The notes beneath the pieces are model-generated. The model worked only from the letters and a program-made list of their open reading frames with translations. It did not search any database and was not told where the DNA came from. The translations under genes and the position numbers were made by a program. Below are positions 32,675-48,570 of a DNA stretch of 64,000 nt, piece by piece. The stretch's first letter is position 1, and each line of letters begins with the position of its first letter. Source of the stretch: Saccostrea echinata (taxonomy: Eukaryota); assembly GCF_033153115.1 (NCBI RefSeq), contig NW_026889801.1, forward strand, positions 13,950,001-14,014,000, read 5' to 3'.

Positions 32675-32855
32675 AGGTCAAGGTCAGAGATCTGGAAAAA
32701 CCCGCACGCGCTCTGCACATTCTGAGATCTGGAAATTCCTGAGATGTGAGATCTGGAAAAACCTGCACGCGCTCAGCACTCACCTGGAAAAACCTAGCCA
32801 TTATGACGTCATACACTGTATAAGTATTGCATGTTTCTGACTTGAAGCTCATTCT
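32675..32855 (+). promoter_or_regulatory. pPolB promoter: 4 kB/Rel-like sites, CRE, TATA, Inr
   Basis: TGGAAAAACC at 32693, 32754 and 32785; TGGAAATTCC at 32730; TGACGTCA at 32804; TATAAGTA at 32819; TCATT at 32849; AGGTCAAGGTCA at 32675. Confidence 0.6.
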
Positions 32856-32880
32856 CTTGTCAGTTCCATCAGCTGTCGAC

Positions 32881-35800
32881 ATGGATTCTGCTATGAAAAA
32901 ACTGTTACATGCCCAGCAACTGATGAGATGGAGAAGACGGGCGAAAGAGTTAGAAAGAATTATTTACAACAATAAACACAGAGAATTAGCGCTCAGAAAA
33001 AGAAATGCGAGAATATTAAATAGAACGCAGAGAGCCCAAGTCCAACAAGAACAACAAAGGACTGTGTCGGATGAAGAACCACACTCATCAGCCCATTCAC
33101 CACCCCGGAAGCCAAAGGCCATTTCCCAATATTATCAAGTGAGACTGAAACAAGCCAAGCATTCCAGAAAATTTAAAGCGCATGAAGATGTCTACAGTGT
33201 GAATTTTAAGGAATTTCCAGAGGAGGAAAACAGAGGCTTTGTTCGGCGATTATTTAGAGACATGCTGCAAAATGTCAAATATCAAATGCAGTGTAATCCT
33301 AACGATTACCTACGCCTGAACATACGCCATCCTTCTCTGGATTCCGACATTTGGTACGAGTTTACCCAATGTAAACATTTAAACGAGGACGTCATTTTAG
33401 ACAAAATAGAAGCCGTGCAACAATCCAAGAAGGATTTTAATCTGGGAGACGGGGCCATGGAATTCGACATGTTTCGGGTCAAGTATCCGGAAGGGAGTGG
33501 TGGAGACAAAACCAAACATCTGATGGTGAACAAGGAGAGTTTTAAGAAGAGGAAACAATCCATCGTTCAGATCGACAATCCTTGGGATCAGTTTTGTTTA
33601 GCTCGAGCCATCGTAGTCACCCGGTTACACTGTCAAAAACCGGAACATTCAGAGAGTTTAGTTGAATGGGAAAAAAGATGGATACGTATGCGGAAAGGAG
33701 ATGTAAGAGCTAATGACCAGAAAAACGAAGCTCTAGCTCTCATGGAACAAACCGACTGTGATATCCATCGGCCTTGTGGACCCGAAGAATGGGGGAAATT
33801 ACAACAGGTGTTAGTCCCTCGCTATCGATTGAAAATATTCCAGTTCAAGTCCACCTCCTCTAAACTCAGTTTAGAGCCCCTTTACAAAGGCTACGGAGAG
33901 GGAACTTGTTTGAATGTCCTGTTAGACGACCATCATTACGATGCCATCATATCTATGCCTGGTGTGACGGGCAACCCATACTACTGTGATCATTGCGACG
34001 TGGGCTACAGTCATATTGAACACCATCGTACCCAGTGTCCACACCGATGTTCCTTTTGTTTAACAGACACTCCCTGCCCTCCAGACGGGAGCCGCATTCA
34101 ATGTAGCCAGTGCCAGGGATTTTTTCAGAGTAGGACTTGCTACGAAAACCATCTACAGCCTCACAGTATGAATACGGCCACCACGGTATGCAGTTTAATG
34201 GGACGATGTAGGCACTGTCAGAAATGGATGCCTAAAAAATTACTCCCTCATCATCATTGCGGAGGACAGAAACAGTGTAAGATCTGTAAGAAAACCGTAG
34301 ACACGGATCATCAGTGCTACGTTCAACTCAAGCCCGAGAAAAAGAAAAAGAAAGGCAAAGAGACCTTACAGTTCTACATCTATTTCGATTTCGAATGTAC
34401 GCAGGAAACCGGCATCCACGTCCCTAACCTGTGTGTGGCACACCGCGTATGTCAACATTGCGGTCACTTACCCATAGAAGATCCCTGTCCTCACTGTCGA
34501 CACATGGGACCCCGTCAACACGTGTTCCGAGGACCAGAGACCTTAAGGCAGTTCATGGACTGGTTATTACAACCCACTACAGGAAATAAGAATTCCGCTT
34601 TATTACACGACGAGGCCATCATCATCGCCCACAATTTCAAAGGATACGACGGACAGTTCATTTTAAATTACCTGGTTCATACCGCCTGCCTGAAACCTAC
34701 CGTCATCATGAACGGCAGTAAAATCTTATCCATGCAAATCTGCGGACTGAAATTCATCGATTCCTATAATTTTTTACCTTTTGCCCTGTCCAAGATGCCC
34801 TCTGCTTTCGGATTCACCGAACTGAAGAAAGGATATTTTCCACACTTTTTTAATACGGAACACAACCAGAATTACGTGGGGCCTTATCCACCGGCAGCTT
34901 ACTACAATCCGGACGACATGTCTATAAGTGGACGACAGGCTTTTTATCGATGGTACGAACAACAAGCCGGAAAAGTGTTTGACTTCCAGAAGGAATTTTT
35001 AGACTATTGTATTTCAGACGTCGATATTTTACGACGATGCTGTGCTCAGTTTAGAGCCACCCTCAAGAGCTTGGTCCATGTAGACCCCTTCCAGGAATCC
35101 ATCACTTTTGCCAGTGCGGCCAATTTAGCTTACCGTCGAGGATTCATGCCCAAAGAGACCATTGCCATCATTCCCAACCTGGGGTATCAGCCTGCGCGTC
35201 GATATTCCGCCAAAGCCTGTCGGTGGTTAAGCTGGATGAGTCACCAGACCGGATCTCACATCCAACATGCTAGAAACGGGGGAGAAGTCAAGATCGGAAC
35301 TTATACCGTCGACGGATACCAGGAAGCCACTCGCACCGTCTACGAATTTTACGGATGCTATTGGCACGGATGCCCCACCTGCTATCCGAATTTACAGACC
35401 GAAAGTCATCCTCACCGGACCCAATTTACTTATGAACAATTACACGAGGAAACTTTAAGACGGAGTTCTGTTTTAGAGGAAATGGGGTACTCCCTCCGTA
35501 GCATCTGGGAGCACGAATTCGATCAACAGGTACAAAGAGAGGTAACTCTACAGAATTATGTACGAGACCTGGACATTCCAGATCCTTTGAACCCCCGAGA
35601 CGCGCTGTACGGAGGTCGGACTAATGCCACTAAATTATATTGTGAGGAGGGGGACATGAGATACGTGGACGTCTGTTCCTTATACCCTTACGTATTAAAA
35701 CACAGACCTTTTCCTTTGGGCCATCCTCAGATCATTACAGACCAATTCCAGGACGTGAGAACTTATTTCGGCCTCATTCACTGTCGGGTCTTACCACCCC

Positions 35801-36778
35801 GAGGCCTCCATCACCCCGTTTTACCTTATCGCACGGGAGGCAAGTTATTGTTTCCATTATGCCGAACCTGTGCGGAACGACAGGACTCTACCTCTAAACA
35901 TCGATGTCAACACGCAGACCAGGAACGCAGTCTTACGGGTACCTGGGTGACTACAGAATTACATAAAGCCCTGGACATGGGTTATACCTTAGAGCGGATT
36001 TACGAAGTTTGGCATTTTTCACAAAGCAGTCGAGATTTATTCAGATCTTACATCGATACCTTCTTAAAGATCAAACAGGAAGCTTCTGGATTCCCACCTG
36101 ATTGTCAGACGGAGGAACAGAAACTAGATTACATTCGTAAAGTCTCAGACAGAGAAGGGATCAGGATGGACCTGTTAAGTATAGAAAAAAATCCGGTGCT
36201 AAGAACGATAGCCAAACTCTTTTTAAATTGCTTGTGGGGAAAATTCGCTCAACGCCTGTTATTACCTAAAACTCGATACTTGACCGAAGAAGAGGAACTA
36301 CAGCAACTCTTACAAGATTCGACCATTGACATCAAAGGGATAGAACTCTTAGAAAATAAAGAGCAGGCCGAATCGGACATGATGCTGGTCAATTATCAAG
36401 AGAAACAGGAATTTGTGGAAGAGTGTCCCTTCGGAAACGTGGTACTGGCCTGTTTCACTACCGCCCATGCCTGATTACACCTCTACGAGACTTTACAACC
36501 TTTGGGAGATCGGGTCCTTTATTTCGACACGGACAAAATCCATGTGTAAAGTCAAAGGATTGACTCTCAATTATCGGGCCTCTCAGATCGTGTCACCAGA
36601 GACTTTAGAAAAAATGCTCCAGAAAGAAATTGACGAAATCCAAGTCTCGTATCCCTACAAAATACAGAGGACTCGTCAACATGAAGTCAAGACAATACCT
36701 TTAGAAAAACAATATAGAATTGTCTATGATAAGAGACAATTGATGGAAGATTATAACACTTTACCTTATGGTTATTAA
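32881..36778 (+). pseudogene. polB: Protein-primed family B DNA polymerase with vOTU-like domain, Cys-rich region and VSR-like nuclease insertion; inactivated near the C-terminus
   Basis: Exo motifs YFDFEC, AHNFKGYDG, YCISDV; Pol motifs YVDVCSLYP, KLFLNCLWGKF, YFDTD. In-frame TGA at 36472-36474 (TAHA*LHLYE), then a frame change directly after YFDTD into KSMCKVKGLTLN...TLPYGY. Confidence 0.95.
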
Positions 36779-36893
36779 AAAAAAAAAAAACAAAACTGTA
36801 TTTTAAATGTGTTGTCATTTTATGGGGAAACCCCCCCCCCAAAAAAAAATGAGGGGTTATAAAAAGGGGGGAAAATAATATAACACTTCAGTC

Positions 36894-47896: not shown

Positions 47897-48399
47897 TGGA
47901 TACAGGACAGTTGAGAGAAGTCTTATCCAGAGAATTAAAGAGTTCTTTTGGTGGAGTGTACCCTGTCGATATATTACCGGATCAATTAAGACCTGGAGAA
48001 AAAGCCATCGTGGTGAATACGGATCCTCAGGATCAACTTGGAGAACACTGGGTGTGTCTGTACGTGAGCAGTCCAGTGGTGGAATATTTTGACTCTTATG
48101 GATTTCCTCCCTTACAGAAAGAAATTCAAGACTTTATCCAGCGTCATGCTCACCAATGGATTTATAATCCGTATCGATATCAAGATTGGAAGACCGATGT
48201 GTGTGGACAATATTGTGTGTATTATTTACATCAAAGACACAAGTTGAGAAAGAAAGCAGACGAGTGGTTATTTCCCTTTGACCATAGTACAGCTTTACAA
48301 AGAGATCATTATGTAGCTCAATGGTTTAAAGACACTTATCATAAAAGACCTACGGGTCATGGACAAACTTGTCAATGTTTCTATCAAAATGTCATGTAA
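47896..48399 (+). CDS. Adenain-like cysteine maturation protease
   Basis: VNTD....GEHWV, EYFDSYG, YQ....VCGQYC (His-Asp-Gln-Cys). Confidence 0.95.
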   Translation: MDTGQLREVLSRELKSSFGGVYPVDILPDQLRPGEKAIVVNTDPQDQLGEHWVCLYVSSPVVEYFDSYGFPPLQKEIQDFIQRHAHQWIYNPYRYQDWKTDVCGQYCVYYLHQRHKLRKKADEWLFPFDHSTALQRDHYVAQWFKDTYHKRPTGHGQTCQCFYQNVM

Positions 48400-48448
48400 T
48401 TAATTGTTGTTATCAATAAAGAATTGAAAAAAAAAAAAATCTGTTCTT

Positions 48449-48485
<37 letters not shown>

Positions 48486-48570
48486 GGGTTTTCCCCATGA
48501 TACTAAATATAGATAGAAAAAAAAGGTATATAAAAAAAAAAGAAAAAGAAAAAAATAGCCTCATTTGATC

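Follow-up and report, generated by a model that had tools for sequence, protein, structure and literature searches.

Results

A rearranged Polinton copy and its genes

The window, by which we mean the whole 64,000-nucleotide stretch of Saccostrea echinata DNA analysed here, holds a 20-kb Polinton/Maverick element, one of many copies in this genome (Table 1). Its membership in this group is indicated by the joint presence of a protein-primed DNA polymerase B (pPolB; PF03175), a retroviral-type integrase (PF00665), a packaging ATPase (PF04665), terminal inverted repeats (TIRs) and a 6-bp target-site duplication. The genes that we take to encode the capsid and protease gave no Pfam match but correspond to genes arranged in the same order at distant loci that also carry integrase and ATPase. 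The window copy has undergone rearrangement and contains broken genes; pPolB, for example, is a split open reading frame interrupted near its C-terminus. When a 51%-identical capsid was used as the query against this genome, mostly the same copies were returned, with no clearly more distant family, and no capsid relatives were found among viral contigs. Two matches to the motif pattern in viral contigs, with no Polinton genes nearby, were taken as chance, and a first metagenome scan gave no matches.

The accessory genes include an inhibitor of apoptosis (IAP) and two paralogous families. B1 and B2 had been labelled RING proteins in a previous sequence-only reading of this locus; a RING-like C-terminus is indeed present, but Pfam did not confirm the label, and the atlas leads for B2 were below 0.9. 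For family A, there was no consistent Pfam match, atlas leads were likewise below 0.9, only three homologues were available, and the structure model (pLDDT 71) had no clear fold match. The label "macro" for the two weak PDB matches of the gene at 48571 is our assumption. Other copies carry, under the same promoter module, a counter-defence-like open reading frame resembling PP1-binding GADD34/ICP34.5, and these Polintons also encode C2H2-like, zinc-knuckle and RING-like proteins.

None of the sequencing runs containing the element was registered as RNA. Contigs from four runs guessed to be RNA covered 27-29 of 30 element bins, structural genes included, with the highest contig depth around A2; contigs can neither rank genes nor show transcript starts, and this coverage was therefore not used. 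Loose A-tails at 43750 fall on an A-run that varies in the genomic DNA and were set aside.

Table 1. Genes and promoter features of the Polinton copy, in window coordinates
Feature	Coordinates	Strand	Details
Polinton/Maverick	32589..52588	+	TIR pair, 5'-AGTAGT ends, 6-bp target duplication, Pfam matches, copies
Left TIR	32589..32655	+	mate 52522-52588, 99% complementary
pPolB kB-like sites (four)	32694..32794	+	32694, 32731, 32755, 32786
pPolB CRE and TATA	32804..32826	+	CRE TGACGTCA 32804, 7 nt, then TATA
pPolB	32881..36778	+	PF03175, E 2e-57
IAP promoter	36824..36865	+	kB-like GGGGAAACCC, TATA 36858; no MEF2-like site
IAP (BIR-RING)	36894..37436	+	PF00653, PF13920
Packaging ATPase	37485..38126	+	PF04665; promoter TATA-like and initiator only
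Integrase, retroviral-type	40369..41421	+	PF00665
Family A1 promoter	41698..41740	+	MEF2-like site decayed, TATA 41731
B1 module	42334..42378	+	kB-like GGTTTTTCC 42334, MEF2-like CTAAAAATAG 42350, TATA 42371
B1	42420..42869	+	ORF; cysteine-rich, RING-like C-terminus, no Pfam RING match
CRE above B2 promoter	42943..42950	+	
Threefold array above B2	43042..43145	-	three 40-nt units: kB-like, 5 nt, MEF2-like; partly decayed
B2 module	43185..43233	+	imperfect kB-like GGGTTTTTTC 43185, MEF2-like CTATAAATAG 43202, TATA-like 43224
B2	43287..43502	+	paralogue of B1; shortened by early stop in this copy
A2 module	43760..43805	+	kB-like 43760, MEF2-like 43776, TATA 43798
A2	43878..44380	+	distant paralogue of A1 (~25% identity)
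Penton TATA box	44434..44443	+	also MEF2-type decamer; no motif upstream
Core-protein TATA box	45578..45585	+	no motif upstream
Major capsid TATA box	46413..46422	+	also MEF2-type decamer; no motif upstream
Major capsid protein	46481..47821	+	F54H12.2-like; ends early in this copy
Macrodomain-gene module	48485..48534	+	GGGGTTTTCCCC 48485, MEF2-like CTAAATATAG 48503, TATA 48527
Macrodomain-like gene	48571..49071	+	weak: no Pfam match, two PDB matches E ~0.015
Inverted duplicate of 36764-39081	50073..52384	-	takes the place of the usual right-end genes

A recurrent promoter module

A TATA box and a TCAKT initiator are found at nearly all genes of the element (an initiator accompanies 13 of the 14 TATA boxes). 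Several core promoters fall within the preceding gene and may lack space for a cassette of upstream sites.

The sequence-only reading had described a kB-like site, a MEF2-like site and a TATA box recurring at near-constant spacing on the polymerase and accessory genes. All the sites that it cited are present, and the spacing is borne out: the positioned kB-MEF2 pair occurs at 4 of 14 promoters in the window, as opposed to 0 matches in 3000 shuffles of the same 70-nt promoter windows with dinucleotides preserved. The 44 kb of flanking host DNA contains no kB-MEF2 match even without regard to position. Upstream motifs do occur at the polymerase gene and at most accessory genes, but the full triple is confined to four genes because pPolB and IAP lack the MEF2-like site. 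In the accessory modules, the MEF2-like site starts 21-24 nt, or about two helical turns, upstream of the TATA box. A GG-W3-5-CC dyad fits 9 of 10 kB-like sites, including the one at 32731, which was read by eye. Compared with the MEF2 consensus, the decamer YTA(W)4TAR flanked by K/M (PMC3807682), the decamer core fits all four modules, the 3' M three and the 5' K one. The MEF2-like sites share one fixed orientation, which is unexpected for a symmetric dimer unless it was inherited.

At pPolB, the presence of four kB-like sites (three of them scored by script) and a CRE was confirmed. The IAP sites at 36824 and 52313 both exist, but they represent one site doubled by the 2.3-kb inverted copy and not two. 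The threefold array above B2 is likewise real, but consists of kB and MEF2-like pairs on the minus strand, matching the promoter that serves two right-end genes found in other copies and missing from the window copy. A CRE or half-site lies at a similar place above B2 in other subfamilies. The MEF2-like site of family A1 is decayed in the window-type copies shown here, and older relatives (L033 and L036) have the complete kB-MEF2 pair. Among host loci, we found two of MEF2 type, one of SRF type and two with Rel homology; the two MADS exons were assigned to the MEF2 type by sequence features.

Two promoter classes

The proposal that structural genes form a separate promoter class, with no kB-like site at the penton, core and major capsid promoters, is supported: core genes have no upstream motifs, and pPolB and most accessory genes have them. 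Across three elements (subfamilies), some cassette is present at 23 of 30 non-core promoters versus none of 18 core virion and packaging promoters, which have a TATA box and initiator only; in these counts, 2 of 50 promoters were left out because a TATA match was absent, the RING-like gene U3 was taken as non-core, the more conservative choice, and motif definitions were picked after the sequences were seen, with AP-1 and TTTGCACA derived from subfamily B itself. With the originally described motifs alone, the contrast is 17/30 against 0/18 (p 3e-5), or against 0/7 when only penton, core and ATPase promoters are compared (p 0.0075), p-values that overstate independence given that copying and common descent link the promoters. 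No cassette was recognised at seven of the 30 non-core promoters. MEF2-like sequence also occurs outside the accessory class, as the penton and major capsid TATA boxes are themselves matches to the MEF2 decamer.

Conservation, subfamilies and cassette copying

Among 30 copies, the best of 77 matches, variable columns number 1 of 57 in motifs (11.3 expected for matched composition), 11 of 56 in spacers and 86 of 554 in intergenic DNA (p ~0.001-0.002). In these copies, the motifs are conserved beyond their spacers. The kB-like sites at pPolB are present in 9/9 window-type copies and 0/10 copies of other subfamilies. The CRE-TATA arrangement at pPolB is found in all 19 copies (of 27 stretches, 8 without a pPolB start being left out).

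The subfamilies differ in their upstream sites. The kB-like sites are found mainly in subfamily A, that of the window copy: non-core promoters have them in 7 of 9 cases in subfamily A (shuffle mean 0.43), 3 of 12 in B and 0 of 7 in C; a positioned MEF2-like site is present at 4/9, 2/12 and 6/7 non-core promoters across the three subfamilies (shuffle means ~0.1). Sister subfamilies carry AP-1-type or tandem MEF2-like cassettes, and subfamily B has kept the kB-like site at IAP and a few other promoters. The MEF2-like sites and the CRE are the parts common across subfamilies.

Cassettes are copied between unrelated genes of an element, with 76-88% identity, in each subfamily, so that some sites do not have independent origins. 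For instance, the A2 module shows 76% similarity over 72 nt with the promoter of B1 in a sister copy, and the pPolB kB cassette is shared with the right-end zinc-knuckle gene of another copy. Beyond these subfamilies, the distant Polinton L132 has the same kB-N7-MEF2 pair about 70 nt from its terminus with no TATA box behind it, and the pair also occurs in a non-autonomous DNA transposon, again without a TATA box at the usual distance; the TIRs of subfamily B contain a single GGAAAAACCC. The MEF2-TATA-initiator module was not found in 80 distant Polinton loci, mostly partial and centred on core genes. Genome-wide, the kB-MEF2 composite is nearly limited to repeats, with 241 matches versus 2 in the reversed control. 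At 9-12 nt spacing there were 0 matches, a weak null because matches at 5-8 nt are inflated by copies. A loose MEF2-N9-15-AGGTATAWA pattern was uninformative (267 matches versus 233 in the control).

Discussion

Host signals as candidate inputs

We consider it probable, judging by promoter sequence, that this Polinton family divides its promoters into two classes, with only a TATA box and initiator at core virion and packaging genes and an added cassette at pPolB and at most of the accessory genes, and that the cassettes recruit host signal-responsive factors and so define an early class. Host Pol II would transcribe the integrated element, with host MEF2 and a CREB/ATF-type factor as stable inputs; a Rel-type dimer at the GG-W3-5-CC dyad would be an extra input in the window subfamily, where it probably partners MEF2 at a constant distance. 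The core genes would likely be expressed later, via template amplification or an element-encoded activator. A cassette copied between promoters would rewire a whole gene class at once, so the host signal or cell type that elicits a response probably differs from one subfamily to the next.

The narrower interpretation advanced in the sequence-only reading, that host Rel/NF-kB induces pPolB and the counter-defence genes of the window subfamily and that the provirus wakes on infection, is partly supported, and we hold it only tentatively. The dyad, the prevalence of kB-like sites at subfamily A non-core promoters, targets that include IAP and the GADD34/ICP34.5-like frame, and a precedent in white spot syndrome virus (WSSV; PMC3171479) all speak for it. 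Against this, the sites are missing from pPolB in all ten other-subfamily copies and from all seven subfamily C non-core promoters, and subfamilies without them at pPolB also have many copies. Furthermore, most sites are of the A-tract type, which for Dorsal are repressive or co-regulator-dependent (PMC3239199), only 3 of the 40 WSSV promoters in which kB sites are predicted responded to Dorsal (PMC3171479), and the 10 composite matches inspected included no unique host-gene case. With similar reserve, one may speculate that co-resident subfamilies each rewired their early class by their own cassette (Rel plus MEF2, AP-1-type or tandem MEF2) and wake on different signals, that the window subfamily would be an immune-triggered endogenous virus, and that the Rel-MEF2 pair at 5-7 nt may form a composite element not described before, which distant Polintons and other mobile elements have reused.

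We think it unlikely that the motifs are bound by an element-encoded protein, in autoregulation, or aid terminal replication or transposition. Adenovirus inverted terminal repeats carry host-factor sites, and the near confinement of the composite to repeats, the L132 pair adjoining a terminus, GGAAAAACCC within subfamily B TIRs and the C2H2-like, zinc-knuckle and RING-like proteins noted above would suit such a role. However, the sites match the host MEF2 and CRE consensus exactly, cassettes have been swapped among subfamilies with largely common gene sets, and most modules are internal, at a fixed distance from a TATA box.

Another idea is that a factor like NFAT5/TonEBP binds the GGAAA-type sites and makes the pPolB promoter responsive to osmotic stress, as would fit an intertidal host; we regard it as improbable. 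The NFAT5/TonE consensus is TGGAAANNYNY, and all four pPolB sites match it (three by script, one by eye). However, the 5' T is missing from the B1, A2, IAP and macrodomain sites and the last pyrimidine from the B2 array, the feature common to the set is instead the GG..CC dyad, and the host search gave two Rel-homology loci, neither assigned to NFAT. Finally, that the recurrence is neutral, left behind by duplication of promoters and by slippage in AT-rich DNA, is very improbable: promoter copying is seen directly, intergenic DNA is homopolymer-rich, A1 has decayed and the loose MEF2-AGG-TATA pattern is not enriched, but motifs are kept while spacers vary among the 30 copies compared, the best of 77 matches, which largely refutes it, and spacers differ between modules whereas motifs and distances are constant, a layout that even ~25%-identity paralogues retain.

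Protist relatives use helper-virus promoters. For the switch that takes an animal Polinton out of silence and into replication, the present family offers a concrete candidate, with named sites, three co-resident subfamilies for a natural comparison and a prediction that early and late genes are set apart. Should the subfamilies react to different stresses, the activity of endogenous viruses in farmed bivalves might be linked to infection or to the environment. Being compact, these promoters might also be of use for gene expression in molluscs, for which tools are scarce (PMC9661190); passages of that paper mention neither MEF2 nor NF-kB for its oyster herpesvirus promoter.

Comparison with known systems

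In gene content, the element resembles the Polintons/Mavericks of the Adintoviridae proposal (PMC8502044), with pPolB, integrase, ATPase, capsid module, TIRs, target-site duplication and variable accessory genes. The word "promoter" is absent from the main text of that paper, and in the literature searched we found no promoter classes, subfamily cassettes or promoter map for animal Polintons.

The Drosophila MEF2-TBP element of antimicrobial peptide genes, which the sequence-only reading had invoked, shares a MEF2 consensus near TATA and an invertebrate immune context. The fly site, CTATAWAAGM, coincides with the TATA box, and Dif/Rel is not needed for its complex to form (PMC3807682), so it offers no precedent for a kB-paired site 21-24 nt upstream; fly-like overlap is seen here only at the penton and major capsid genes, neither of which matches CTATAWAAGM exactly. 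WSSV, whose immediate-early promoters are activated by shrimp Dorsal (PMC3171479), is a nuclear DNA virus of invertebrates, and kB-like sites are present at some of its promoters. As in ie1-type promoters, a kB-like dyad lies near the core promoter, but at pPolB the sites are not retained outside the window subfamily; WSSV is lytic and backed by reporter evidence, whereas the Polinton is integrated and pairs putative kB sites with a MEF2-like decamer.

The Epstein-Barr virus (EBV) BZLF1 promoter and the HIV-1 LTR likewise place host signal-responsive sites near the TATA box of a key promoter in a latent viral genome. The BZLF1 promoter (Zp) holds MEF2 and CRE-like sites, and the HIV-1 LTR holds kB/NFAT sites. 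HIV-1 makes use of kB sites (PMC3171479). These viruses have one switch promoter, whereas the Polinton has a cassette over many genes that differs between co-resident subfamilies. The Mavirus provirophage (bioRxiv 10.1101/068312) is also an integrated polinton-like virus with a common promoter motif proposed to time reactivation, but its motif is the late promoter of the helper giant virus, whereas the Polinton promoters are of host Pol II type and fall into classes.

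A young, abundant Polinton family

The Pfam matches of the Polinton in the window comprise protein-primed DNA polymerase B (pPolB), IAP, packaging ATPase and integrase, and its nearest named capsid homologues come from rock oysters (Saccostrea, 96%), with other oysters next, which points to a rock oyster as the probable host. A 2.8-kb stretch of the element yielded 77 DNA matches, and capsid matches (95 scored of 458 candidates) cluster at about 98%, 93% and 83% identity, the groups from which we named subfamilies A (window), B and C. These numbers mark a family that is both young and abundant. 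The window copy has suffered damage: a break near the C-terminus splits pPolB, accessory gene B2 and the capsid gene are cut short, and a 2.3-kb inverted duplicate stands where the right end would normally lie. Accessory-rich elements at G000:C14 (L091-L093) and G000:C8 (L089-L090) gave no capsid, ATPase or integrase matches; the former is bounded by terminal inverted repeats, its pPolB is broken, and as many as seven MEF2-like sites stand in tandem.

Features of the window and of other DNA stretches compared (L numbers)
Feature	Coordinates	Description
Polinton	32589-52588	terminal inverted repeats, 5'-AGTAGT ends, 6-bp target duplication
Penton TATA	44434-44443	MEF2-type decamer
Major capsid TATA	46413-46422	MEF2-type decamer
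Separate mobile element	2362-9759	349-nt inverted repeats around reverse-transcriptase-like ORFs (3102-4490, 6628-7530)
Host flanks	10883-12048, 57750-58290	satellite-like arrays, ~145-nt repeat
Right-end ORF pair	L051:7709-8262	overlapping; one with PP1-binding GADD34/ICP34.5-like tail under 3-4 module copies
U3	L051:9228-9932	conserved Pro/Arg-rich RING-like gene
Rep endonuclease-like gene, subfamily B	L072:8501-9866	CRESS-virus type; PF02407, E ~1e-4, below cut-off
Rep endonuclease-like gene, subfamily C	L101:1239-1874	as for subfamily B
kB-N7-MEF2 pair and second kB-like site	L132:9881-9930	distant Polinton, adjoining terminus

Two classes of promoters

A TCAKT initiator lies 3' of TATA at 13 of the 14 window promoters, a layout that we take to be that of host Pol II. 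The sequence-only reading had described a module of kB-like site, MEF2-like decamer and TATA at near-constant spacing; all of its sites were found in the window sequence, and the module recurs with fixed spacing at 4/14 promoters, versus none in 3000 dinucleotide shuffles, while the kB-like/MEF2-like combination is absent from the 44 kb flanking the Polinton.

Our table of 48 promoters draws on a single element of each subfamily, leaves out 2 of 50 that had no TATA match and counts the RING-like U3 as non-core. The motifs originally described occur at 17 of 30 non-core promoters (pPolB and accessory genes) and at none of 18 core promoters (virion and packaging genes), in agreement with the proposed separate class of structural genes; any recognised cassette of upstream motifs is found at 23/30 and 0/18, respectively. 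When the core set is limited to the seven penton, core and ATPase promoters, p is 0.0075 for the original motifs and 0.0003 for any cassette, for motifs picked post hoc and promoters of common ancestry. At the penton and major capsid genes, the TATA is itself a MEF2-type decamer in most copies of every subfamily, where MEF2 could compete or cooperate with TBP. The GC-rich promoter of U3 matches neither class, and its product is a candidate element-encoded regulator.

In the A1-penton region, substitutions among the 30 best copies, the window included, fall in 1/57 motif columns, compared with 11/56 spacer columns and 86/554 other intergenic columns (p ~0.001-0.002); the composition-matched control, the more lenient of two and one that takes in homopolymer runs, predicts 11.3 variable columns. 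Because the copies are related and substitutions only were scored, this comparison supports constraint and gives no measure of it. There is good support for a constrained promoter system with two classes. The literature surveyed, thin on subscription journals, turned up no paper describing promoter motifs in animal Polintons; supplements to the adintovirus paper could bear on this.

Stable and exchanged cassettes

A CRE adjoins TATA at pPolB in all 19 stretches with the gene start, whereas kB-like sites accompany pPolB in 9/9 window-type copies versus 0/10 others. At non-core promoters, kB-like sites number 7/9, 3/12 and 0/7 in subfamilies A, B and C, and positioned MEF2-like sites 4/9, 2/12 and 6/7. 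The kB-like sites of polymerase and accessory genes belong mainly to subfamily A. Subfamily B instead carries TGACTCA (AP-1 type), AAAACGTA and TTTGCACA, subfamily C carries tandem MEF2-like sites, and the cassette of the U1 zinc-knuckle gene differs among all three. By self-alignment, unrelated genes within each element share copied cassettes at 76-88% identity. One such copy is the array above B2, derived from a right-end promoter that serves a gene pair with a PP1-binding GADD34/ICP34.5-like ORF (PF10488, E 5e-5, short of the family cut-off).

Relics, and two elements that lack a capsid, keep the full kB-MEF2 pair at promoters of accessory family A. Judging from this distribution, the pair is probably old in the lineage, with later amplification in subfamily A and erosion in the other two.

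Genome-wide, the strict pair has 241 matches, versus 2 for the reversed pattern used as control, an excess that reflects copy number, since the inspected matches lie in Polintons or other repeats: three of ten among Polinton genes, one beside a Polinton-like terminus, four in one TTAA-flanked DNA transposon family (L031, L032, L038, L039) and two in apparent repeats. This transposon is non-autonomous, with short terminal repeats and ~42 matches, and bears the pair at 5-nt spacing ~280 nt from one end.

The MEF2-TATA-initiator arrangement was found in none of the best 80 of 385 distant metagenomic Polinton loci (~360 kb, mostly partial). One distant metagenomic Polinton, L132 (capsid ~35% identical), contains GGGTTTTTCC-N7-CTAAAAATAG with the same 3' flank, ~70 nt inside the terminus and with no TATA behind it. 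With 2 control matches per 923 Mb, chance is an unlikely source, and L132 supports treating the pair as a unit, though not as a promoter element in particular. Its contig continues into bacterial-looking sequence.

Candidate host factors

The host genome contains two MEF2-type, one SRF-type and two Rel-homology loci. A GG-W3-5-CC dyad, present in 9/10 kB-like sites, speaks for a Rel dimer. All four pPolB sites also fit the NFAT5 consensus, which the accessory sites do not match. We lean towards host MEF2 and CRE-binding factors as the probable stable inputs of these promoters. The original interpretation is supported in part, for the two-class split and motif constraint, and its NF-kB component loses from the confinement of pPolB kB-like sites to subfamily A; NF-kB-triggered waking is a less probable reading, and would concern the window's subfamily only.

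Published systems also weaken simple NF-kB activation: for Dorsal, A-tract kB sites act repressively or depend on a co-regulator (PMC3239199), and only 3 of 40 WSSV promoters with predicted kB sites responded (PMC3171479). The decamer fits the MEF2 consensus quoted in PMC3807682. In that paper, the fly MEF2-TBP complex invoked as precedent works at TATA itself and forms without Dif/Rel. In the window, that layout, with MEF2-type sequence at the TATA, is the one seen at the penton and capsid promoters.
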